NCBI GenBank assembly: GCA_028279505.1
Contig: JANQNP010000067.1
Coordinates: forward strand, 9-64,008
Origin: Dehalococcoidia bacterium
Lineage (GTDB): Bacteria; Chloroflexota; Dehalococcoidia; UBA2979
DNA length: 64,000 nt
Reading direction: 5' to 3'
Positions 672-63,853 of this stretch are shown here, in pieces. The translations under genes were made by a program, and so were the position numbers. Each line of letters starts with the position of its first letter. Position 1 is the first letter of the stretch. The notes under the pieces were generated by a model. It was not told where the DNA came from, did not search any database, and saw only the letters and a program-made list of their open reading frames with translations.

Positions 672-1044
672 CGGAGGTCCCCCCACTCCTGCGCGACTCA
701 CGGCCCGTCCGGCCACCCGCCGCGCCAGCAGCGAGATGCGCCTCTAGGTCGTCGAGGCTCCTCTCCCAGAAGGTTCGCTGGTCCGCCAGCCACTGCTCGG
801 CCGTCCGCATCGCATCCGCCGTCATCCGGCAGATGCGCACTCGGCCCACCTTCTCCGTGCGCACCAACCCGCTCCGCTCCAGCACCTTGATGTGCTGAAC
901 GAACGACGGCAGCGCCATGTCGAACGGTTCTGCCAGCTCCGAGACCGATGCCTGCCCGCGGCTCAGCCGCGACACCACGATCCGCCGTGTCGGATCGGCG
1001 AGGGCGTGAAACACTTCGTCGAGAGTCGCGGATTGGTTAGCCAT
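664..1044 (-). CDS. ArsR/SmtB-family HTH transcriptional regulator, cassette 1
   Basis: ArsR winged-helix signature FHALADPTRRIVVSRL...SVSELAEPFDMALPSFVQHIKVLERSGLV; ATG at 1044-1042. Confidence 0.85.
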   Translation of the reverse strand: MANQSATLDEVFHALADPTRRIVVSRLSRGQASVSELAEPFDMALPSFVQHIKVLERSGLVRTEKVGRVRICRMTADAMRTAEQWLADQRTFWERSLDDLEAHLAAGAAGGRTGRESRRSGGTSGE

Positions 1045-1046
1045 GT

Positions 1047-1077
1047 ACCTAACTATCCTTGAGCTGAACAGTTAGGT
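1047..1077. promoter_or_regulatory. Perfect 8 bp inverted repeat ACCTAACT-N15-AGTTAGGT abutting the ArsR start; candidate operator overlapping a -35/-10-like promoter of a leaderless transcript
   Basis: Read directly: ACCTAACTatccttgagctgaacAGTTAGGT. On the minus strand this reads TTGACC-N18-ATAGTTAGGTAC-ATG. Confidence 0.45.
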
Positions 1078-1281
1078 CAACAGCTAAGTGTCGCTCCGAG
1101 TCGCACGAGAGGGGTCAGGGTGGTCGCAGTCGATCGACAGCAGTAAGCACGGGCCGCCACGCGCTGGCTCTACATCGCGAACACCGCCCTGCTCGCGACG
1201 CACCAGGTCGACGCGGCCTACTGGGAGGAGTGGGACACGTTCCGCCTGCCAATCGGCATCGAGGGCTTCCTCCTCTTCACC

Positions 1282-1521
1282 GTGGCGGTGCTGATATCCG
1301 TCCTCCACGGCCTCGGCCAGGTCGCCCGCCGCGAGCCTGGAGCGGAGCGCTGGTCGTACGCGATCGCGGCGCTGGGCGTCTTCACCTTCACCCTGCACGC
1401 GGTCATCCTCGCCCTCGGAAACGACGACTTCCGCAGCGCCACCTCGCTCGCACTGCTGCTCGCGATCCTCGGCGTCGCGGTCGCCCAGGCCCTCGCCACG
1501 AGGCGAGTCACCACGAGCTGA
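1282..1521 (+). CDS. Small hydrophobic membrane protein, divergent from ArsR; true start probably upstream and non-canonical
   Basis: The open frame begins at 1147, after a TAA at 1144-1146. The first GTG (1282) falls inside a TM helix (FLLFTVAVLISVLHGL), which suggests an earlier CTG or another start. Three predicted TM helices. Confidence 0.3.
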   Translation: MAVLISVLHGLGQVARREPGAERWSYAIAALGVFTFTLHAVILALGNDDFRSATSLALLLAILGVAVAQALATRRVTTS

Positions 1522-1603
1522 CGAACGACGGCGACCTCCGATCGTTGATCGATCTGTGGCCCGCGACACGCAACCTCCCGAGGTGGCCCGGCAGGATCAA
1601 CCT

Positions 1604-3313
1604 ATGACGCACCGCCGCACCCTCGCCCTCCTCGCGACCTTCGCACTAGCGATCGTCGCCGCCTGCGGCGGCGACTCAGACGAGCCGAGCGGGGCCCCAA
1701 CCACCGAGGACCGCGCCGCCCCCGCCTTCAGCAGCGTCACCGTCGACGGCCCGCTCGACGTCACCGTCCGACTGAAACGCGGTGCCCCCGAGCGAATCGA
1801 GGTCACCGCACCCGGCGGCGGCCACGAGCGCATCGTCACCTCGGTCGAGAGCGGCGCGGCCACCGTCACCGCCGACAGCGAACCGCTCGAGGGCACGTCG
1901 GTCCTCCTCGTGGTCGCCACGCTCGAGGCCATCGACGCCACCGAGGGCGCATCCGTCTCCCTCGTCGGCGAGGTGGAGCTCCCCGTCTTCGAGGCCGCGG
2001 CGACCGCCGGCGCCTCGATCGTCGCCCGCGACGTGATCGGCTTCGAGCGGACCAGCGGCTCCTGGCAGCTCCGCGTCGAGGGCGACTCGACCATCGACCT
2101 CGCCGAGATCCTCGCCTCGTCGGTCAACGTCGAGGCGAGCGGGCGCAGCACCGTCACCGTCGAAGCCCTGATCTCGGTCACCGGCACCGTCGAGCCCGGC
2201 GCGACCCTCGAGGTGCTCGGCTCACCGAACCGCGTCGACGTCACCGGTGGCGGCTTCGTCCGAGCGGAGCCAGCGGAGCCGATAACGCCACCAACCGACC
2301 CGGCGCCCGAACGCCCAGACGCCCTCACCGGCGCCCCGCTCCCCGCGCTCGAAACCGAGTCCGTCGCCTTCGACGAAGACCGCTTCAACCCGAGCGCCGG
2401 CACCTTCCCCGCGCTCACCGATCCCGCGGTCGTCCCCGCCGAGGATGCCCGTTGGCTCGACGACGACACGCTCGTCCTCGGCGCGACGCAGAACGGCGAG
2501 GCCCGCGCCTACCCGATCTTCATGCTCACGTTTCATCACGTCGCGAACGACACCCTCGGCGGAGAGCCCTACCTCGTCACCTTCTGAATCGTCTGCTCAT
2601 CGGGGGTCGGCTTCGACCCCCTCCGACCCAGCGAAGACGGCGGCGGCGACCGCCTCCTCTTCCACACCGCCGGCATCTACAACGGCGTCTTCACGATGTT
2701 CGACGACCGCACCGGCAGCGTCTGGTCACACCTCGACGGTCGCGCCCTCGGCGGCGAACTGGCCGGCGAGGCCCTCGAGGTGCTCCCGCTCCAGACCACG
2801 ACCTGGTCAGCCTGGGTCGCCGACCACCCCGAAACCACCGTGCTCGCGCTCGACACCGGATACCGCTACCGCAATGAGGTGAGGCTCGCCGGTGGCGGCC
2901 TCGGCCACACCTTCGCCGACAGCCTCGTCAGCACCGACGATCGCCTGCCCATCAACGAACTGGTAATCGGCGTGCTCGTCGGCCAGCAGGCCGCCGCCTT
3001 CCCCGTCGACGTCATCCGCGAGGACGTCCCGCTCCACGCCGATGTCGACGGCGTCCCCATCGTCATCCTCGCCGACACCGAGGGCGAGCCCTCGCTCGCC
3101 TACCACCGCGCCCTCACCGACGGCCGCGTCCTCGACTTCGAGCGTTCCGAGGACGGCACCCTCCACGACACCCAAACGGCTTCCCGCTGGACCTCGAGCG
3201 GCCTCGCCGTCGACGGCGAGCTCGCCGGCGTCCAGCTCACCTTCGTCACCTCGTTCCTCAGCGAGTGGTACGGCTGGGCCGCCTTCCACCCTGAAACCAC
3301 GATCGAGGGCTAG
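1604..3313 (+). CDS. Lipoprotein with a GIN/DUF2807-like beta-rich region and a C-terminal DUF3179 domain, interrupted by one in-frame TGA (2585-2587); either a candidate selenocysteine codon or a pseudogene
   Basis: Signal peptide with lipobox MTHRRTLALLATFALAIVAACGG. ORFs 1556..2587 and 2696..3313 are both in frame 2 and separated only by TGA. Read-through gives ...GGEPYLVTF-[TGA]-IVCSSGVGFD...FTMFDDRTGSVWSHLDG..., continuous DUF3179 sequence. Confidence 0.7.
2602..2621 (+). other. GC-rich hairpin (8 bp stem GGGGGTCG/CGACCCCC, loop GCTT) starting 15 nt after the in-frame TGA; SECIS-like position
   Basis: Seen in sequence. There is no U-tract after the hairpin and the reading frame continues with homologous sequence. 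Confidence 0.4.
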
Positions 3314-3374
3314 CCTCCGTCGCGCCGACCGCTCGACGTTCGGGACCTGGACGCGGCCACCACCCCGCTCGCAC

Positions 3375-3412
3375 GAGGCGCGAAGCGTCAACCGAGGGGT
3401 CGAAGACCCCTC
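3375..3412. repeat. Dispersed intergenic element, copy A: GAGGCGCGAAGCGTC + aacc + hairpin GAGGGGTC-GAA-GACCCCTC
   Basis: Lies between convergent genes; the hairpin overlaps the SDR stop codon (3411-3413). Related copies are at 33235-33270, 43899-43935 and 44992-45025. Confidence 0.6.
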
Positions 3413-4187
3413 AGAAGCCGCCGCCGTTCACGCGGATCTTCTGGTTGGTGATGTAGCGGCCATCCTCGCCGACGAGGTGGGCCACCGTCGCTGCGATGTC
3501 GGCGGGCTCGCAGACGTACCCGAACGGCGAGCTGGCGTCGCGCTCGCGCATATCGACGTCGTCGTGGCCGGTCAGCGCCGAGACCAGCGCGCGACCCATA
3601 TCCGTGTCGACCAGCCCCGGCGCCACGACGTTCACGCGAATCCCGTGCTCGCGCTCCTCCTTGGCGAGGGTGTGCGCCATCGCCTCCATCGCCGCCTTGC
3701 TGAGCGCGTACAGCCCGTAGCCCGGCGCCATCCCTTCCGTCGCCACCGAGGAGATCATCACCACGTCCCCACGATCGGCCGCTCGCATCTGCGGCACCAG
3801 CGCCTGGACGGTGTGAATCGCGCCCCAGAGGTTCGCGCCGAGCAGCGTCTGGTACTGCTCCGTCGTCGCCTCCGTGATCTTCGGCCGGTTCACGTACGCC
3901 GACCCGAGCCCGGCGTTGTTCACAAGGATGTCGATCCGCCCGAGGTCCCCGACCGCCTGCTCGCACATCGCCTCAACGGCGGCGCGATCGGCTACGTCCG
4001 CCTGGTACACCTCCGCCCGCCGCCCGAGCGCCCGCACCTCGTCGGCGACCTCGTTCGCGGCCTCGGCGTTGTTCGCGTAGTTGATCGCCACGTCGGCGCC
4101 ATCCGCCGCAAGCCGCACGCAGATCGCGCGGCCGATGCCGCGGCTGCCACCGGTCACCAGCGCCGTTCGTCCCTCGAGACCTGCCAT
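3411..4187 (-). CDS. SDR-family oxidoreductase (FabG-like 3-oxoacyl reductase)
   Basis: TGGSRGIGRAI Rossmann motif, NNAG, YxxxK (YALSKAA), PGLVDTDM. Confidence 0.9.
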   Translation of the reverse strand: MAGLEGRTALVTGGSRGIGRAICVRLAADGADVAINYANNAEAANEVADEVRALGRRAEVYQADVADRAAVEAMCEQAVGDLGRIDILVNNAGLGSAYVNRPKITEATTEQYQTLLGANLWGAIHTVQALVPQMRAADRGDVVMISSVATEGMAPGYGLYALSKAAMEAMAHTLAKEEREHGIRVNVVAPGLVDTDMGRALVSALTGHDDVDMRERDASSPFGYVCEPADIAATVAHLVGEDGRYITNQKIRVNGGGF

Positions 4188-4276
4188 CGGGTGCTCCGTT
4201 CGTTCGCGAAACCGATCGTTATGAAGTACAGATTGCTACATTCAACCTCGCAGCTCTCTGACGATCGAAGCGAACG

Positions 4277-5206
4277 ATGCCCGTCCCCACATACAACGAA
4301 CTGATGCGGCCGGTGCTGGCTGCGCTCGATTCCGGAGAGACCCTGCCCGTCTCCCAAATCAAGGAGCGAGTGATCGACTCGCTCCCGGACGAGGCTGCTG
4401 ACACTCGAGCGACAACACCTGGCGGGGCACCGCTGCTAGTCAGGCGAATCGAGTGGAGTGTCCAGTACCTGCTGAAGGCCGCGCTGATCGAACGACCGGA
4501 GCGCGCCCACTACCGGATCACGCCTCGCGGTTCGGATGTCCTCACGAACGGCCCCGCTACCCTCGACTGGCGTTTCTTACAGACATTCCCCGAATTCGCG
4601 GGCTGGCTAAGTCGATCGAACTCGGTCCGACCGGGACGAGCCGGCGATGGAAGCGCCGAACTCGGGGCGCAGTCGGACGGGGACTCGACGCCGGACGATC
4701 TGCTCAGCAGGGGCGTCGCCGCAATCGAGGCGCGCGTGATCGATGAGCTAGTCGAACAACTCACGCAGATCACACCGACCCAGTTCGAGCGCCTAGTCAC
4801 ACGACTCCTCGAGTCGATCGGATACACCGGCACGGAGGGCGTCGGCGAAGTCACGTCCGGCGGAGCCGACGGCGGCATCGACGGGATCATCCGACGCGAC
4901 CGTCTTGGGCTCGAGCGAATCCTCCTCCAAGCGAAACAGTGGTCTGCCGACCGCCCTGTCGGGCGACCTGAGATCGATAAGTTCCTCGGAGTCCTCGGGC
5001 GCGAAGGTGTTTCACTGGGTGTGTTCATCACCACGTCCAGCTTCACCCGCGACGCTCGTGAGGGCGTCACGCACCTGGGTGGTCAGGTAGCGCTAATCGA
5101 TGGGCAGCAACTCTCGCAGCTCATGTACGAATACGACACCGGTGTGAGTATCGAATCCCGCTTCGTGACGAAACGCCTCGATACTGATTTCTTTGAGAAC
5201 CTCTAG
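4277..5206 (+). CDS. mrr: Mrr-type modification-dependent (type IV) restriction endonuclease
   Basis: Mrr_N winged helix (MPVPTYNELMRPVLAAL) plus Mrr_cat core (GGADGGIDGII...LLQAKQW...GVFITTS). Markedly lower GC and GC3 than flanking genes; AT-richer upstream region. Confidence 0.85.
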   Translation: MPVPTYNELMRPVLAALDSGETLPVSQIKERVIDSLPDEAADTRATTPGGAPLLVRRIEWSVQYLLKAALIERPERAHYRITPRGSDVLTNGPATLDWRFLQTFPEFAGWLSRSNSVRPGRAGDGSAELGAQSDGDSTPDDLLSRGVAAIEARVIDELVEQLTQITPTQFERLVTRLLESIGYTGTEGVGEVTSGGADGGIDGIIRRDRLGLERILLQAKQWSADRPVGRPEIDKFLGVLGREGVSLGVFITTSSFTRDAREGVTHLGGQVALIDGQQLSQLMYEYDTGVSIESRFVTKRLDTDFFENL

Positions 5207-33113: not shown

Positions 33114-33164
33114 CCCCACCCTCCGAGGCCAGCCAACCCTCCGAGGCCGCCCACCCTCCGAGGC
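33114..33164. repeat. Three tandem copies of a 17 bp unit (cCCACCCTCCGAGGCC) directly after the GNAT stop
   Basis: Seen: ccccaccctccgaggcc / agccaaccctccgaggcc / gcccaccctccgaggcc. Related CCCACCYTCCGAGG copies are at 10413-10426 and 20274-20313. Confidence 0.6.
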
Positions 33165-33234
33165 CAACCAACCCCAGGTAGCTCGCACGACCGCGCGCCG
33201 CGAGCCACGGCCCTGCGAGGTGGCCGGACCACGC

Positions 33235-33270
33235 ACCCCGAAGGGTCAGAAGAGGGGTCGAAGACCCCCC
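33235..33270. repeat. Dispersed intergenic element, copy B: ACCCCGAAGGGTC + agaa + GAGGGGTCGAAGACCCC
   Basis: Two GAA-triloop hairpins ending 2 nt before the CtaG stop codon (33272-33274). Confidence 0.55.
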
Positions 33271-33271
33271 G

Positions 33272-34111
33272 TCAGATTTGGCCGGCTCGTCTCGACTCCG
33301 TTGCTGACCAGGCGAAGAACGCCATCGCCAGCCGGGCCATCAGGATCGGCATCGTGCCCATCCACATCAGAAGCCCGGCGATCACCTGGTCATCCTTTGC
33401 TGAGAGGTCCGAGAAGGCGCGCGTCGCGAACTCGAACGTCGTGTAGAGCGGGAACTCCGAGAACACGAAGAACGCGCCCGGAATCGTCGGCAGCACCGTG
33501 ATCCCGAGGACATACACCAGCCGGCGCGCGTTCGCCGTCGACATGTCCCCCTCCTGGTCGAACGCGCCGATCGCGCTCCAGAAGATCAGCCCGGCCATCA
33601 GCCACAGCACGTCCATCGCCATCGAGCCGAACTGGATCGGCTTCAGCGTGTCGGCGACGAACGGCAGGTGTGTCACCGCCAGCACCGCGTTGAACGCGAC
33701 GAACGCCAGGAACGGCCGGTCCACGAGGTAGCGCGCCCAGCCCATCCCCGGCGCGCCCCACACCAGCTCGCGCATCCACGGCGGCGTGCCACGGATCAAC
33801 AGCGGTGCCACGATCAGCGAGTAGAGGATGTACTGGATCATGTGCGCGGTGAGCAGGTACCCCGCGCCCAGCACCCCCAGCGGCCAGTCCGTCGCGATCC
33901 ACAGCAGCACGTACCCCGTCGCGAACGAGGTCACCTGTGACCGCGTCACCACCGGCTCGCCGGCCGCGACCTTCGCCGGCCCGATCCGCCTGATCGCGTA
34001 CACGTACCCAACGAGGAGCGCGATCATCGCCGCCCAGATCCCCGGGTAGAACTGCGGCGTCCACGACCACGGCCCTGTCTGAGCCGAGCACCACCAGCCG
34101 ACGTTCGTCAT
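33272..34111 (-). CDS. Cytochrome c oxidase assembly factor CtaG-like membrane protein (Caa3_CtaG family)
   Basis: Polytopic membrane protein of about 280 aa, directly downstream of PCuAC and SCO1 genes with a 4 nt start/stop overlap. Confidence 0.65.
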   Translation of the reverse strand: MTNVGWWCSAQTGPWSWTPQFYPGIWAAMIALLVGYVYAIRRIGPAKVAAGEPVVTRSQVTSFATGYVLLWIATDWPLGVLGAGYLLTAHMIQYILYSLIVAPLLIRGTPPWMRELVWGAPGMGWARYLVDRPFLAFVAFNAVLAVTHLPFVADTLKPIQFGSMAMDVLWLMAGLIFWSAIGAFDQEGDMSTANARRLVYVLGITVLPTIPGAFFVFSEFPLYTTFEFATRAFSDLSAKDDQVIAGLLMWMGTMPILMARLAMAFFAWSATESRRAGQI

Positions 34112-42688: not shown

Positions 42689-43768
42689 ATGCGACGAAGC
42701 CTGATCCTCCTCGTGGTCGGCATCGCGATCGCCGCCCAGGCCCTCATCGCCGGCCCCGCCGTCCAGGCCCACGATGGCGACGTCGTCGCCGCCCGAGTCG
42801 CCGGCGATCTGCCGGTCGAGGGCGTCTTCCTCGGCCTATGGGAAGGCGGCTCCGTCGAGAGCCTCGGCGTCGACCAGCCGCAGGTCAGCTCCGTCTGGGT
42901 CAGCGCCAACGGCGCGCTCGTCGGCTACCTCGTTGGCGCGCCCGACTTCGTCAACGCCGACTTCCTCGGCCGATTCCCGCAGGGTCAGGTCGGACCTGGC
43001 ACGCCCGTGCTCGCCGTCGTCGTCCAGACCACGACACCGCCGCCGGCCCCGGTCGGCGCCTACTCCCTCGCCACCTGGACCGCCTTCTCCGACGTCCTGC
43101 TCGCGCCCAACTACGAGGTCGCGAGCTGCGCCGGCTGCTGGCCGGGCTACACCGGCACCACCATCGGCCTCACCACCCGCTGGATCGAAGGCGCCACGCT
43201 CGACGTCTACGTCTACTCCGGCGACGTCGACGACATCGCGGCTCTCGAGGCCCAACTCAACGAATTCCAGACGCGCCTCGATCTCCCGTGGCGGTACGTC
43301 GCCACGCCCGCCGAAGCGAACCTCCACATCTTCATGAACTTCGACCGCCTCAACGTCCCGACCTCGTTCCCGGCCTGGGCACAGGACAGCCTCGCCGCGC
43401 GCGCCAACGTCAGTGGATGGACCGCCTACGCGACCACAAGCTCCTCATTCACCATCGGCCCGAACGGCGTAGATCCCGCGGATCGGTACGCGATCGATGA
43501 AGCAGCGATCTACGTCCCCTTCAACCAGCAGAACGGCGACCTGATCGCGCAGCCGTTCATCGACTCGATCATCAAACATGAGCTCGTCCACGCCATCGGC
43601 TGGGGCCAGCACTGGGACGTCCCCGGTCGCCTGATGTCGCCCGTGGCGTCGAACCCCCTCGACGTCAGCGGTCTCGAATGGGACATGCTGAAGCTGCTCT
43701 ACGAGGACGACGTGCTCCCCGGCATGTACGACGACCAGGTCCTCGCGGTCATCACCGTCACCCAGTAA
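42689..43768 (+). CDS. Secreted metzincin-like zinc metalloprotease
   Basis: Signal peptide; HELVHAIGWGQH (HExxHxxGxxH) followed by a Met-turn candidate (RLMSP). Confidence 0.6.
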   Translation: MRRSLILLVVGIAIAAQALIAGPAVQAHDGDVVAARVAGDLPVEGVFLGLWEGGSVESLGVDQPQVSSVWVSANGALVGYLVGAPDFVNADFLGRFPQGQVGPGTPVLAVVVQTTTPPPAPVGAYSLATWTAFSDVLLAPNYEVASCAGCWPGYTGTTIGLTTRWIEGATLDVYVYSGDVDDIAALEAQLNEFQTRLDLPWRYVATPAEANLHIFMNFDRLNVPTSFPAWAQDSLAARANVSGWTAYATTSSSFTIGPNGVDPADRYAIDEAAIYVPFNQQNGDLIAQPFIDSIIKHELVHAIGWGQHWDVPGRLMSPVASNPLDVSGLEWDMLKLLYEDDVLPGMYDDQVLAVITVTQ

Positions 43769-43898
43769 CCACCCGCCGCCGCCCCGCGGGCTCAGCCGTC
43801 CCCGGACTCGCAACCACGCCGCCGGTCGACCCCGCGCCGAGCGCACCGCGGCGTGACCATCAGCCATTGCGACCCGAGCCACCGCCCGCGACACTGAC

Positions 43899-43935
43899 GA
43901 GGCGCGAAGCGTCTAAAGAGGGCCGAAGGCCCCCC
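43899..43935. repeat. Dispersed intergenic element, copy C: GAGGCGCGAAGCGTC + taaa + GAGGGCC-GAA-GGCCCCC
   Basis: Ends 11 nt before the gpmA ATG, immediately 5' of its GGAG RBS. Confidence 0.55.
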
Positions 43936-43945
43936 GGAGTGCGTC

Positions 43946-44704: not shown

Positions 44705-44991
44705 TCGAGGAATCCTCGGCCGACCCGAGTCCTCGGACCCGAGCGTCTAGCTCAGCTCGGCTGATGTCTCACCGGAGACCTCGAAGGCGTGTCGATCGAC
44801 GACTAACGGTCGCTGCCAGCCTTCAACGACCGGACCCTCACGCGACAGCGATTCTGGAGCAGGGTCGCGAGGGGCGCAGCCCCTCGCCTAGCAGGGCGGG
44901 CGGGTGGGCCACTCTCTAGTTCCGAAGACAACGCCGAAGGCGAGCCGCATCACGGCACCGGAAGAGCGCCGCGAGAGGGGCCGCACCTCCC

Positions 44992-45025
44992 AAGGCGCGA
45001 AGCGTCCTGGAAGACCCGAAGGGTC
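44992..45025. repeat. Dispersed intergenic element, copy D: AAGGCGCGAAGCGTC + ctgg + AAGACCC-GAA-GGGTC
   Basis: The hairpin ends exactly at the DAHP synthase stop codon (45026-45028). Confidence 0.55.
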
Positions 45026-46090
45026 CTAGGTACCGACGGGCGCTGGCGTCTGCGCGTGCGCCTCAGCCGCCTCGTTCAACAGCGCCTCGGTCTCGCTCCA
45101 GTCGATGCACGCATCCGTGATCGACACCCCGTAGCGCAGCTCCTCGCCGTTCAACGGCTGGTTCCCGGCGAACAGGTGACTCTCGAGCATCAGCCCGACG
45201 ATCCCGTCGCTCCCCGCCTGCCGCTGCGCCACCACATCCCGGAACGCCACCGCCTGCCGCGTGTGATCCTTCTCCGAGTTCGCGTGCGAGCAATCCACCA
45301 TCACCAGCGGGCGCGACTCCGAGGCCCGTAGCTTCTCCTGCGCCGCCGCGATCGACGCCGCATCGAAGTTCGTCGCGCCCTGCCCGCCGCGCAGCACTAG
45401 GTGCCCATACGGATTGCCCGTCGTGTTCATCACGCAGGTCCGACCTTCCTGGTCGATACCCACAAATGCGTGCGGCGCTCGCGCCGCCACCATCGCGTCC
45501 ACTGCCACCTGCGAATTGCCGTCGGTCCGGTTCTTGAACCCCACGGGCATCGACAAACCGCTCGCCATCTGCCGGTGCGTCTGGCTCTCGGTCGTGCGCG
45601 CACCGATCGCCGCCCAGGACACTAGGTCCGCGAGGTACTGCGGAACGATCGGGTCCAGGAACTCCGTCCCCGTTGCCAGCCCCATCCCCGTTACCTCGAG
45701 CAGCAGCTGGCGTGCCCGCCGCAGCCCCTGGTTCAGGTCGAACGTCCCATCGAGGTTCGGGTCGTAGACCAGCCCCTTCCACCCGAGGGTCGTGCGCGGC
45801 TTCTCGAAGTAGACCCGCATCACTACCAGCAGCTGCTCGCGCACCTGCTCCTCGAGACGTGCGAGCCGCTCCGCGTACTCGAGCGCCGCGCGTTCGTCGT
45901 GGATCGAGCAGGGCCCCACGATCACCATCAGCCGCGGGTCGTCTTGGCGGAGCACCGCCTCCACCTGCGAGCGCCCGCGATGGACCGAGCTGACGTGATA
46001 CTCCGTCGCCGGAAGCTCCTCGAAGAGCTGCGCGGGCGTGACCAACGGGTCCGTGCTCGCGATATGGAGATCTGAGGTCTGCTGGTGCAT
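45026..46090 (-). CDS. aroG: 3-deoxy-7-phosphoheptulonate (DAHP) synthase, class I
   Basis: KPRTTLGWKGLVYDP...LVSWAAIGARTTESQTHRQMASGLSMPVGFKNRTDGN is near-identical in pattern to E. coli AroG. Confidence 0.9.
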   Translation of the reverse strand: MHQQTSDLHIASTDPLVTPAQLFEELPATEYHVSSVHRGRSQVEAVLRQDDPRLMVIVGPCSIHDERAALEYAERLARLEEQVREQLLVVMRVYFEKPRTTLGWKGLVYDPNLDGTFDLNQGLRRARQLLLEVTGMGLATGTEFLDPIVPQYLADLVSWAAIGARTTESQTHRQMASGLSMPVGFKNRTDGNSQVAVDAMVAARAPHAFVGIDQEGRTCVMNTTGNPYGHLVLRGGQGATNFDAASIAAAQEKLRASESRPLVMVDCSHANSEKDHTRQAVAFRDVVAQRQAGSDGIVGLMLESHLFAGNQPLNGEELRYGVSITDACIDWSETEALLNEAAEAHAQTPAPVGT

Positions 46091-54287: not shown

Positions 54288-55295
54288 CTAGGCCGGCGTC
54301 GCTTCGGGCGTCGGCTCGACGGTCGGTTCGGGAGTCGGGTCCGGTGTCGGGGTGGGTTCCGGAGTCGCCGAGGCACCCGGTCCGGGCGTCGGCTCCGGCG
54401 TTGCCTCAGGAGCCGGCTCCGGCGTGCTCGTCGGTTCGGGCGTCGCCGCCGGCTCGGGCGTCGCAGTGGACTGGGGCGTGCCCGTCGGCTCAGGCGTCGC
54501 AGCTGGCTCCGGAGTGCCCGCAGGCTCGGGCGTCGCCGCCGGCTCGGGCGTGGCTGTGGGCTCCGGCGTCGCCGACGGCTCCGAGCCCGAATCGTCTGAC
54601 GTCCCGACGGTCTGATCCGCGATCTCAACCTCGTTCGACGGCTCAGACTCCATCCCCGACGCATCGATCCCGACCACCCGGTAGTAGAACGTCACCCCGT
54701 CCTCGATCGGCGAGTCGACGAACTCACTCCCCAGCGGCGCCCCAACGATCTCGTACGGCCCGCCCGAACTCCGCGAACGGAGCACGACGTACCCCACGCT
54801 CACATCGTCATCCGGCCAATCCAACGTCGCGTACCGAATCGAGTGATGCTCCGACCCAGTCAGATGCCCACCGAGGAAGTACGTGAACTTCGGCCGGCAA
54901 TGCACGCGGGGCGACTCCGCCGGCTCCCCTGGCGCCCCGCCAACCACCGCACTCACCCGGTACTGATGCCGGAGGAAGCTCGGCTTCAGCGCCAGCTCCG
55001 TCGTCCCCCCACCCACCGAGGCAAGATCGCGATACCCCGAGGAAAACGGCCCTTTGTGCTCAATCTCGTACCCCTCGGCACCCTCGACCGCCCCCCACTC
55101 CAGCTGCGCGATCGGGTGGCGGTACCAGTCGATGTCACAGTCGACGTCCGCCGGGGTCCCCGACGGCACGTCGATGTCCGCCGGGATCACGAGGGCGTCG
55201 AGCTGGCTATCGCCAACAGAGATCGTCGCCGCGTTTGCGGTGATCGTCGTGATCGCCACGACCAGCAGTCCCAGAACGACGACGCGCCTGATCAC
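54288..55295 (-). CDS. Secreted FN3-like-domain protein with a C-terminal (T/A)PEPx Pro/Thr-rich repeat tail
   Basis: Signal peptide VVLGLLVVAITTITANAAT; FN3-like EWGAVEGAEGYEIEHKG and FYYRVVGIDASGMESEPSNEV; about 20 TPEPA-type repeats. Confidence 0.65.
   Translation of the reverse strand: MIRRVVVLGLLVVAITTITANAATISVGDSQLDALVIPADIDVPSGTPADVDCDIDWYRHPIAQLEWGAVEGAEGYEIEHKGPFSSGYRDLASVGGGTTELALKPSFLRHQYRVSAVVGGAPGEPAESPRVHCRPKFTYFLGGHLTGSEHHSIRYATLDWPDDDVSVGYVVLRSRSSGGPYEIVGAPLGSEFVDSPIEDGVTFYYRVVGIDASGMESEPSNEVEIADQTVGTSDDSGSEPSATPEPTATPEPAATPEPAGTPEPAATPEPTGTPQSTATPEPAATPEPTSTPEPAPEATPEPTPGPGASATPEPTPTPDPTPEPTVEPTPEATPA
54291..54600. repeat. 15 nt periodic tandem DNA repeats (ggctcSggcgtcgcY-like) encoding the TPEPA linker
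   Basis: Seen in sequence, within the CDS 54288..55295. Confidence 0.6.
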
Positions 55296-62215: not shown

Positions 62216-63267
62216 CCGCGGCACCGGGATCGGAATCGGAGCGCGGCCGGCGCTGGCGCACCGCGATCGCGGTGCAGGTCCTCGTCGGCGTCCTCGTCCT
62301 CGCTGCCTTCCTCTGGCGCGTCGACATCCTCGGCGCACTGCAGAACCTTCCCGAGCTCCAGCTCAAGTGGGCCCTCGCCGGCACCGTCACGTTCTCGCTC
62401 TCGAAGTTCGTGCACGCCTACCGTTGGCGCTGGTTCCTCCGCCACCGCAAGGAGCTCCCGTTCCGCCGGCTCTTTGAACTCTTCCTCGTCTCGAACCTCG
62501 CCAACGCCATGATCCCGCTCCGCGCCGGTGACCTCCTCCGCGTCGAACTCCCCAGCCGGCGCTACGGCGTCCCCCGCGCCGAGCTCGCCAGCAGCGTCTT
62601 CCTCGTCGAGTCACTGCTCGACGGCGTCGCCTTCGTGCTCCTCGCCTTCGGCGGTCTCCTCATCTTCGACCTCCCCACCTCCCTGCGCCCGGGCGTCGCC
62701 GTCCTCGCCGCCATCGTCTTCCTCGTCGCCTACGTCTCCGTCCGCGCCGCCCGAGGTGGCGACGACTGGTCCGTCGACACCTCGCTCTGGCGCTACCTCG
62801 TCCCCCGCCGCTTCCGCCCGAGGATCAACGGCTGGCTCACCGAAGCCATCGACGGCATGTCCACCCTCAGCGACGTCCGCAGCGCCACCATCGCCGTCGC
62901 CCTCTCCGTCGTCGCCTGGATGCTCGAGGTCGGCGTCTGGTGGTACATGGGCAAGGCCTTCGGCATCGAACTCGCCTTCTCCGAGGCCCTCACCGTCATG
63001 ATCGCCGCCAACATGGCCCAGGCGATCCCCATCACCCCCTGGAGCATCGGCCCCTACGAGGTCGCCGTCACCGAGGTCCTCGTCCTCCTCGGCTCGAGCC
63101 GCCTCGACGGCTCCAGCTACGCCATCGGATCCCGCATCCTCCTCATGCTCTGGATCGGCGCCACCGGCCTCATCGCCATGTGGTCGCTCGACCTCCGCAT
63201 GCGCGACCTCCTCGGCTACGGCAAGAACCAGACCCCAGCCCCCGCCACCTCCGAGGCCGATCCCTGA
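62212..63267 (+). CDS. Lysylphosphatidylglycerol-synthase-TM-like (UPF0104 / MprF flippase-domain-like) membrane protein
   Basis: Eight TM helices with a conserved Arg/Trp-rich loop (KFVHAYRWRWFLRHRKELPFRRLFELFLVSNLANAMIP); its ATG overlaps the upstream stop (ATGA). Confidence 0.65.
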   Translation: MTAAPGSESERGRRWRTAIAVQVLVGVLVLAAFLWRVDILGALQNLPELQLKWALAGTVTFSLSKFVHAYRWRWFLRHRKELPFRRLFELFLVSNLANAMIPLRAGDLLRVELPSRRYGVPRAELASSVFLVESLLDGVAFVLLAFGGLLIFDLPTSLRPGVAVLAAIVFLVAYVSVRAARGGDDWSVDTSLWRYLVPRRFRPRINGWLTEAIDGMSTLSDVRSATIAVALSVVAWMLEVGVWWYMGKAFGIELAFSEALTVMIAANMAQAIPITPWSIGPYEVAVTEVLVLLGSSRLDGSSYAIGSRILLMLWIGATGLIAMWSLDLRMRDLLGYGKNQTPAPATSEADP

Positions 63268-63384
63268 TGTCCCTCGACGATCGAATCCACTTCGCCCGCA
63301 GTGACATCACCCGCTTCGAGGCCGACCCCTGATGTCCGTCAACGACCGAATCCAGCTCGCCCGCGGCGACATCACCCGCTTCGA
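63253..63384. repeat. Two tandem 66 bp direct repeats (about 88% identical) spanning the 3' end of the LPG-synthase-like gene and the 5' end of the macro-domain gene
   Basis: Unit 1 is 63253-63318 and unit 2 is 63319-63384; each carries ...GAGGCCGAYCCCTGATGTCC...GACATCACCCGCTTC. Confidence 0.7.
63267..63332 (+). CDS. 21-codon upstream mini-ORF ([21 protein letters not shown]) created by the tandem duplication
   Basis: Its ATG shares one nt with the upstream TGA (TGATG), and its TGA shares one nt with the macro-domain ATG (TGATG); the peptide duplicates the macro-protein N-terminus. Confidence 0.3.
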
Positions 63385-63853
63385 GGTCGACGCCATCGTC
63401 AACGCCGCCAACTCCACCCTCCTCGGCGGAGGTGGCGTCGACGGTGCCATCCACCTCGCCGCCGGCCCCGGCCTCCTCGAGGAGTGCCGCACCCTCGGCG
63501 GCTGCCCACCCGGTGAGGCCCGCATCACCGGCGCCTACGCCCTCCCAGCAACCTGGGTCATCCACACCGTCGGCCCGATCTGGCGCGGCGGCACCAACGG
63601 CGAAGACCAAACCCTCGCCTCCGCCTACCGCTCCTCCCTCGCCCTCGCCGCCTCCGTCGAAGCCCGCACCGTCGCCTTCCCCTCCATCAGCACCGGCATC
63701 TACGGCTTCCCGATCGACCGCGCCGCCTCAATCTCCCTCACCACCATTCGCAATTCCCTCGCAACCCATCCCACCATCGAGACCGTCACCCTCGTCTGCT
63801 TCAACGACGCCAACCACACCGCCTATGCCACCCTCCTCGACAAGGCCAGCTAG
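63332..63853 (+). CDS. Macro-domain protein (O-acetyl-ADP-ribose deacetylase, MacroD/YmdB-like)
   Basis: [49 protein letters not shown]. Confidence 0.85.

Follow-up and report, generated by a model that had tools for sequence, protein, structure and literature searches.

Four short intergenic sites in a 64,000-nucleotide (nt) stretch of DNA from a Dehalococcoidia bacterium (assembly GCA_028279505.1, contig JANQNP010000067.1; hereafter the window) are copies of one real dispersed repeat family, which is lineage-specific to uncultured GC-rich Chloroflexota known from metagenome-assembled genomes (MAGs) labeled "Dehalococcoidia." The most striking regularity of the repeat modules, and a family-wide property, is that about half of them touch stop codons. 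We consider the chances somewhat better than even that the family is a lineage-specific two-hairpin module, similar to the repetitive extragenic palindromic (REP) sequences of other bacteria, that is transcribed at the start of the 3′ untranslated region (UTR), serves there as a hairpin barrier at the 3′ end of the mRNA, and is copied, perhaps, via hairpins in single-stranded DNA (ssDNA).

Four copies in the window

The exact 14-mer AGGCGCGAAGCGTC occurs three times in the window (at 3376, 43900, and 44993), each time on the + strand. The count expected from dinucleotide shuffles is 0.01, and 0 of 100 shuffles reached 3. In all three cases, a GC stem closing a GAA triloop follows 4 to 6 nt downstream. 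A covariance model built from 43 copies, the window copies among them, matched exactly four window sites, which we call copies A to D; the scores were 49 bits for copy C, 48.4 for A, 47.5 for D, and 33.9 for B, and the next window site scored 14 bits. Because the window copies were in the training set, the informative outcome is that the window holds no additional copies. Such a search had been proposed in a first-pass annotation of this DNA, which had pointed out the four sites from the sequence; the alignment of copies supported covariation in hairpin 2, and the search gave further copies in related loci (see below) and, within the window, went no further than the original four.

The coordinates and sequences of the four sites were as the annotation described them, and inspection of the gene context confirmed that all four are intergenic and share one orientation. 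Copy A (3375-3412, + strand) consists of the 15-mer GAGGCGCGAAGCGTC (3375-3389), within which hairpin 1 is GGCGC-GAA-GCGTC (3377-3389), the spacer aacc, and hairpin 2, GAGGGGTC-GAA-GACCCCTC (3394-3412). When folded as RNA, it forms two hairpins on either strand. The stem of its hairpin 2 is 8 bp long and those of copies C and D are 5 bp each, all being perfect GC stems. Copy A lies between a DUF3179 gene (+) and an SDR gene (−, 3411-4187), and the SDR stop codon, TGA at 3411-3413, shares 2 nt with the end of hairpin 2. Copy D (44992-45025, +) is made up of AAGGCGCGAAGCGTC (44992-45006, with the 14-mer at 44993-45006), the spacer ctggaa, and GACCC-GAA-GGGTC (45013-45025); it lies between gpmA (+) and the DAHP synthase gene (−, 45026-46090), whose TAG stop codon (45026-45028) is 0 nt from hairpin 2.

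Copy B (33235-33268, +), between a GNAT gene (+) and a CtaG gene (−), has both hairpins and lacks the 14-mer, making it a divergent member of the family: ACCC-CGAA-GGGT (33235-33246), the spacer cagaaga, and GGGGTC-GAA-GACCCC (33254-33268). The TGA stop codon (33272-33274) of the Caa3_CtaG gene (33272-34111, −) comes 3 nt beyond its hairpin 2. The description of every site as [G/A]AGGCGCGAAGCGTC plus a hairpin thus holds for copies A, C, and D and fails for copy B.

Copy C (43899-43935, +) has the 14-mer at 43900-43913, the spacer taaaga, and GGGCC-GAA-GGCCC at 43920-43932. It lies between an ORF of unknown function (+, ending at 43768) and gpmA (+) and is the only window copy without stop codon contact; the gpmA ribosome-binding site (RBS), GGAG (43936-43939), begins 3 nt farther on, and the gpmA ATG (43946) is 13 nt on. 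The neighbors named in the annotation, three adjoining stop codons and one RBS, were therefore all correct.

Architecture of the module

The repeat unit is ~37 to 42 nt long and comprises a near-constant hairpin 1, a spacer of 3 to 6 nt, and a hairpin 2 of 5 to 8 bp rich in GC. The core of hairpin 1, AGGCGCGAAGCGTC, folds as GGCGC-GAA-GCGTC with one G·T pair. The 43-copy alignment shows no variation in the loop or the closing pair of either hairpin. The second pair of hairpin 1 is G·U in 31 of 43 copies and G-C in just 3, and there are two subtypes, GGCGAAGCACC and GGCCCGAAGGGTC, the latter in copy B. Hairpin 2, closed by C-GAA-G, is variable in sequence, with many swaps between GC and CG, and yet its inner 5 pairs are ~100% paired (a figure inflated by the way in which some copies were collected; see below). 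At pairs 25-35 and 26-34, G-C and C-G are about evenly represented among the 43 copies. Certain hairpin 2 stems recur across genomes, namely, GGGGTC/GACCCC, GGGCC/GGCCC, GCCCC/GGGGC, and CCCCC/GGGGG. The predicted RNA folding energies were −16 to −22 kcal/mol per ~45 nt, with z-scores of −0.6 to −3.4, and the energies were alike on both strands.

Lineage and distribution

The proteins closest to the gpmA and SDR products of the window are MAG proteins and proteins labeled "Dehalococcoidia bacterium" or "Chloroflexi bacterium" (76 to 93% identity), and one homologue is encoded on a CBDFJZ01 contig. All true copies of the module also come from Chloroflexota "Dehalococcoidia" MAGs. An actinobacterial host is thereby ruled out, and the annotation's suggestion that REP or MIRU elements of related Actinobacteria be used for comparison was misdirected, the host belonging to a GC-rich Chloroflexota MAG lineage.

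We scanned genomes, one per species, for AGGCGCGAAGCGTC-N8-13-CGAAG and obtained at least 102 loci. Among the matches listed, ~75 of 102 lacked a second hairpin and were chance occurrences of the 14-mer within coding sequences of unrelated phyla; genuine two-hairpin modules were multicopy in three Chloroflexota MAGs (JAQCIU01, CBDFJZ01, and JABIST01). In all, the module is multicopy in at least five related genomes. A narrower pattern applied to metagenome contigs gave 12 matches, 8 of them true modules on contigs of 66 to 70% GC; in viral contigs, there were two chance matches in coding sequence and no true module. The covariance model gave 45 matches in 261 kb of related loci. Chance occurrences of the 14-mer plus CGAAG in unrelated genomes scored 25 to 38 bits, and nearly all family copies scored 40 to 58 bits, with a few degenerate copies lower. 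In the literature on CGAAG repeats and on Chloroflexota/SAR202 repeats, we found no description of the two-hairpin family.

The 14-mer also turned up in other repeat contexts in unrelated genomes. A Mycobacterium MAG (L032, 3438-3478) has a tandem AGGCGCGAAGCGTCAGG, and a Planctomycetota MAG (L041, ~4130-4230) has an array of GGCGAAGCCGGGCGAAGCC...GCGCGAAGCGTC units.

Contact with stop codons

The 3′ end of hairpin 2 falls within −4 to +5 nt of the stop codon of an opposite-strand ORF in 23 of 47 modules (most often at −2, 0, or +1), and these ORFs are long, with a high GC content at third codon positions. Because the contact is on the opposite strand, the loops in the mRNA of the touching gene are UUC, not GAA, and the order in the mRNA sense is stop codon, stem-UUC-stem, N3-6, and GACGCUUCGCGCC. 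Such a hairpin stands at the stop codon of 23 (~14%) of the 165 genes called with confidence in the related DNA. Two loci (L098 and L108) have convergent gene pairs with a separate hairpin or module at each gene.

The touched stop codons differ from the rest. They are TAG in 10 cases, TAA in 9, and TGA in 4, compared with 82 TAG, 10 TAA, and 50 TGA among the other genes, and a C immediately precedes the stop in 20 of 23 touched genes versus 71 of 142 others. In the gene sense, CTAG or CTAA adjoins the element in about half of the copies and is the stop of the adjacent gene; the other half of the copies have no such CTAR. In this clade of 69% GC, the most frequent stop codon is TAG, which ends 92 of 165 confident ORFs in the window and loci L009 to L108 (TGA ends 54 and TAA 19). 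In GC-rich bacteria, TGA is more often the preferred stop.

A general survey of hairpins behind all stop codons was too noisy for use. We did observe that the TAA stop codon of gpmA is followed directly by a hairpin of another type, TCGAGG-aat-CCTCGG (44705-44719), so stop-adjacent hairpins are not confined to the GAA/UUC family.

Persistence and turnover

Modules are kept at the orthologous ends of the SDR, CtaG, and DAHP synthase genes and 5′ of gpmA in genomes whose proteins are 76 to 89% identical, and across these orthologous sites hairpin 1 is retained while hairpin 2 is altered. At the SDR stop codon (copy A), TGACGCTTCGCG is found in the same place in two orthologous loci (L111, 89%; L113, 76%) and in a tandem SDR paralogue; at these ends, hairpin 2 is TGACCG-TGA-CGGTCA or GGCCG-TGA-CGGCC, with a loop that is not UUC. 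At the CtaG stop codon, the module is present in the window and in L108; the two loci differ in the stems of hairpin 1 and hairpin 2 alike and in the stop codon itself. The DAHP synthase stop codon has GACCC-GAA-GGGTC in the window and in the CBDFJZ species (L104 and L105), a degenerate module in L108, and in L106 only a module remnant, the short spacer there being occupied by an 11-bp hairpin, AACGGCCCCGC-gcga-GCGGGGCCGTT. The orthologue of copy C 5′ of gpmA in L106 has an identical 14-mer. By these comparisons, the modules are old at particular gene ends.

Such persistence would be expected if the module did not copy itself and were instead a vertically inherited, sequence-specific signal of the 3′ UTR. 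Hairpin 1 (GACGCUUCGCGCC/AGGCGCGAAGCGUC) would then be bound or processed by a trans-acting protein or an RNase, or would be a lineage-specific termination signal, under purifying selection at many gene ends, and hairpin 2 would be purely structural. Several observations agree with this explanation: hairpin 1 is kept at the orthologous SDR ends (76 to 89%) and in the paralogue even as the sequences around it (spacer, hairpin 2, and flanks) have diverged; hairpin 2 covaries; and the module has decayed in L106, where another strong hairpin is present. Moreover, the 64-kb window contains just three TTTT runs and no U-tract terminators near the copies, and the clade may need some other end signal.

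The turnover of the units, however, argues the other way. Two assemblies of one species (CBDFJZ, L104 and L105), which are 99% identical, differ after the DAHP synthase stop codon by an indel of 39 nt that corresponds precisely to one unit. Head-to-tail units, two or three in number, occur in L105 and L104; others occur in L047, L061, and L084, and L016 contains a head-to-tail array of 39 nt × 2.9 with 98% identity. The ancestral C terminus of DAHP synthase has been replaced in the CBDFJZ species, where the final residues (...DPSGHRRRFAPA*) are encoded by a repeat unit (L104, 201-470; L105, 467-700). Identical 35-nt cores, spacer and stem included, are found at unrelated loci, both within and between genomes; in a comparison of 35-nt cores, orthologous copies differ at 3 to 13 positions. 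One-unit polymorphism within a species, arrays, a unit inside a coding region, and identical cores at unrelated loci of different genomes are all difficult for a signal that is only inherited vertically. So are the small fraction of confident genes that carry the module, the conserved copy in a 5′ leader, and the conserved G·T pair of hairpin 1, which is mismatched in the mRNA sense. We therefore think this explanation unlikely, if worth keeping in view.

One of the CBDFJZ assemblies also differs from the others on a larger scale: L103 has an insertion (851-5132) encoding a type I restriction-modification S subunit, an N6 methylase, and a DDE_Tnp_1 transposase, which is missing from the L104 and L105 assemblies of the same species.

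Strand asymmetry

The evidence as to which strand of the module is functional is mixed. Conservation of the G·T pair means that hairpin 1 folds better on the GAA strand, which fits a role in the mRNA poorly. On the other hand, the first non-Watson-Crick pair flanking hairpin 2 is A/C in 30 cases versus G/T in 11, an excess that lengthens the stem when read in the UUC (mRNA) sense, in many cases through the G of TAG. As ssDNA, the GAA strand contains mini-hairpins of the GCGAAGC and CCGAAGG types, which are unusually stable (the melting temperature of GCGAAGC is 76.5°C [PMC13037366]).

The GC skew of the window, (G − C)/(G + C), is strong and uniform at −0.11 to −0.18, and it is nearly equal on + strand genes (−0.163) and − strand genes (−0.137), the genes being split ~46:54 between the strands. 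The pattern resembles a strand asymmetry of the replication type, is unusually large, and comes with hardly any gene-strand bias. A C-rich tract 5′ of the module, which we had considered as a feature of the element, is explained by this strand-wide skew. The modules follow the skew: GAA is on the C-rich strand in 4 of 4 window copies and in 44 of 55 modules over all loci. The stop codon hairpin is ~2.5 to 3 times more common on genes with a G-rich coding strand (21 of 134 versus 7 of 119; Fisher P = 0.016), with P = 0.07 in the subset with the strongest skew.

These biases raise the question of a purely selfish miniature ssDNA transposon, either a palindrome-associated transposable element (PATE) of the IS200/IS605 type or an element of the type formed by REPs and REP-associated tyrosine transposases (RAYTs). 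It would be mobilized by a Y1 HUH enzyme and would insert 3′ of CTAR on the lagging-strand template. Since the tolerated CTAR sites in a 69% GC genome would mostly be the stop codons of leading-strand genes, contact with stop codons would follow without any function in RNA. The enrichment of TAA and of a preceding C at touched stops, the uniform skew of the window across both gene strands with its four co-oriented copies, the placement of GAA on the C-rich strand and the preference for G-rich-coding genes, the membership of both hairpins in the very stable class of ssDNA mini-hairpins (PMC13037366), and the known biology of IS200/IS605 (PMC6006769) are all in its favor. Yet half of the modules adjoin no CTAR, the strand bias is modest and falls short of significance in the strongest-skew subset, no filled/empty pair of sites was recovered, and no Y1 transposase was found in ~0.9 Mb by a tblastn search that was itself weak. 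By the usual logic of skew, moreover, the stable GAA strand would be the leading-strand template and not the exposed lagging-strand template, and persistence at orthologous sites over large distances is unusual for an element that is purely selfish. We regard a purely selfish origin as rather improbable.

Terminators and nearby features

No U tract follows hairpin 1 or hairpin 2 of the window copies on either strand. A consensus scan near the copies gave no terminator-like site on either strand and no promoters, and a relaxed scan for a hairpin plus T's gave only noise. At the gathering thresholds, Rfam had no matches in the whole window; at E ≤ 10 in the region of copies C and D, its matches were subthreshold and due to chance, none of them lying on a module. 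One of these, to the terC RNA (RF03067), is on the − strand at 44936-44992, just upstream of copy D, and is itself probably due to chance (26.3 bits versus a gathering threshold of 39.9; E = 0.06).

The modules might still be ordinary intrinsic terminators that are alike only because a short GC stem with a favored loop is optimal in this genome, with no family kinship among them. All the window copies are indeed intergenic, three of the four between convergent genes, and among the triloop palindromes of these genomes, those with GAA/TTC are the most frequent (24 per 100 kb versus 6.8 in control loci). But an exact 14-mer common to dozens of loci in several species, hairpins that lack a U tract on either strand, tandem arrays with unit polymorphism, and a copy (C) between a putative promoter and the gpmA RBS make this very doubtful. 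The annotation's preference for a repeat or structured element over independent terminators is borne out by the multiple copies in related genomes, the retained pairing of hairpin 2, and the missing U tracts.

The putative gpmA promoter just 5′ of copy C, TTGCGA-N17-GACACT (43867-43895, + strand), was read by eye and is conserved in L106 and in L103 and L105; in the consensus promoter scan near copy C, it scored below the threshold. If it is real, copy C would form the extreme 5′ end of the gpmA transcript, in the GAA sense.

Several other hairpins and repeats were observed. A 9-bp hairpin, GCGAGGGGC-gca-GCCCCTCGC (44867-44887), is located midway along the gpmA-DAHP synthase spacer of 321 nt, at ~100 nt from copy D; it is stronger than both module hairpins and could be the real bidirectional terminator of that spacer. 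The GNAT-CtaG spacer has an 18-nt × 3.2 tandem repeat (ACCCTCCGAGGCCAGCCA, 33118-33174) just upstream of copy B, in place of which the same spacer in L108 has several dispersed TCCGAGGC motifs. Elsewhere in the window are a 65-nt × 2.2 tandem repeat with 88% identity near the right end (63252-63391) and an 18-nt × 9.4 tandem repeat inside a − strand ORF (54412-54581), which probably encodes a repeat protein.

A model for the module

The explanation that we favor is the REP-like one put forward at the outset. The module would be transcribed as the first part of the 3′ UTR, where its two stable hairpins would form a barrier at the 3′ end that shields the coding part of the mRNA from 3′-to-5′ exonucleases or aids the end of transcription. 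Hairpins so close to the stop codon may also hinder the terminating ribosome, by analogy with E. coli, in which 260 of 496 REPs are within 15 nt of a stop codon and stall terminating ribosomes, as quoted in PMC12306157. New copies may arise by copy-and-paste or by duplication that keeps hairpin 1, and the obvious candidate enzyme for their spread would be an HUH/RAYT-like nuclease that recognizes ssDNA hairpins.

Several results weigh against this explanation. REPs are defined by GT[AG]G 0 to 2 nt 5′ of the hairpin foot, a basal stem of 7 to 20 fully paired nt, and a loop of 2 to 5 nt (PMC6006769), and the 43 aligned copies have neither GTAG nor GTGG at a hairpin foot, whichever hairpin or strand is considered. 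There are also no inverted doublets like those of the REP doublets (REPINs) and bacterial interspersed mosaic elements (BIMEs); the units are single or head-to-tail, and the sole opposed pair, in L098, comprises a separate module for each of two convergent genes, located at its stop codon. No RAYT or IS200 gene was found below E = 1 when ~0.9 Mb was searched by tblastn, a weak test with approximate query sequences (IS200 TnpA and the E. coli RAYT). With regard to a role in the mRNA, the G·T pair of hairpin 1 (31 of 43 copies) turns into mismatched A·C when read as mRNA, copy C and its orthologue are 5′ of gpmA and not at a gene end, and stronger hairpins that are candidates for the real terminators are often nearby (44867-44887 in the window, and in L039 and L040). 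Finally, a stem was required when part of the copies were collected, which inflates the pairing statistics of hairpin 2. However, nearly all of the copies found in three MAGs by means of the 14-mer alone have the stem, and chance matches elsewhere do not.

Bolder proposals can be made at either extreme. The module might be a ~40-nt stop-codon-seeking ssDNA element that a hairpin-recognizing HUH enzyme pastes into the strand left exposed by the replication fork, 3′ of C-TAG or C-TAA, thereby marking and at times providing the ends of leading-strand genes; or hairpin 1 might be a lineage-specific, sequence-defined 3′-end signal that replaces U-tract terminators in a clade with hardly any T runs in its DNA. 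We would give proposals of this kind only a small chance of being correct.

If the REP-like explanation is right, a well-defined repeat family is added to what is known of a large, uncultured, and poorly annotated lineage. The module would be a marker of true gene ends in these MAGs, being within a few bases of a real stop codon, and it would account for strain-level differences in length and for the altered C terminus of DAHP synthase. The family would also be a test case for whether contact with stop codons reflects a function (3′-end protection or ribosome stalling) or an insertion preference, and for how palindromic repeats without a tag spread when there is no obvious RAYT. No general concept is altered by the finding.

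Comparison with known repeats and hairpins

The family is most like the REP/BIME (REPIN) sequences of Proteobacteria. Both are short (20 to 40 nt), GC-rich, dispersed palindromes that are almost only intergenic and are concentrated at the 3′ ends of genes, between convergent or codirectional genes. In both, about half of the copies are near a stop codon (for E. coli, by the figure quoted in PMC12306157; here, 23 of 47). Both form clusters, are occasionally inserted in frame in genes, and occasionally persist at orthologous sites. They differ in that the stems of the module are shorter, 5 bp in hairpin 1 and mostly 5 to 6 bp in hairpin 2, with a few of 7 to 8 bp, although the 3-nt loop fits the REP definition. 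The module also consists of two unlike hairpins in tandem on the same strand, and head-to-tail clusters are rare for REPs (PMC3733652).

CGTC-tagged REPs (Di Nocera et al. 2013, PMC3733652) have an unpaired CGTC tag at one end, stems of 8 to 9 bp that start with A-T, loops of 4 to 5 nt, and a CCA tail, and they are mostly head-to-head dimers; there is no report in that work of such families from Chloroflexi. Like the module, they have CGTC a few nt 5′ of a variable hairpin, have no dedicated transposase that is known, and are mostly intergenic with occasional intragenic units. In the module, however, CGTC is base paired, forming the 3′ arm of hairpin 1 at 3 to 6 nt from hairpin 2; the stems are 5 to 8 bp of G-C around a GAA triloop; a CCA tail is lacking; and the units stand alone or follow one another head to tail in arrays. 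PATEs of the IS200/IS605 type share with the module two subterminal hairpins, one end that adjoins a short specific sequence without any target duplication being apparent, and an orientation that is biased relative to the GC skew. The module differs in that its unit is only ~40 nt long, its two hairpins are unlike, and half of its copies have no putative CTAR target.

As to terminators, the module resembles intrinsic terminators, and the "I-shaped" hairpins without a U tract that have been proposed for GC-rich bacteria, in being a GC stem-loop just downstream of genes that could be used from both strands between convergent genes. It differs from intrinsic terminators in having no U tract, a 14-mer common to loci and species, two small weak hairpins, and one copy in a 5′ leader. 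Finally, the DNA mini-hairpins d(GCGAAGC) and CCGAAGG are known from phage G4 origins, RSF1010 ssiA, and phage N4 promoters (PMC13037366). Hairpin 1 contains an exact GCGAAGC, and hairpin 2 is always closed by C-GAA-G. The mini-hairpins, however, are single functional ssDNA sites of phages and plasmids, whereas the modules are chromosomal repeats at gene ends, and nothing ties them to priming or to ssDNA promoters. Taken together, the family resembles REPs yet falls outside the strict definition of a REP; the family is new, but the kind of system to which it belongs is familiar.

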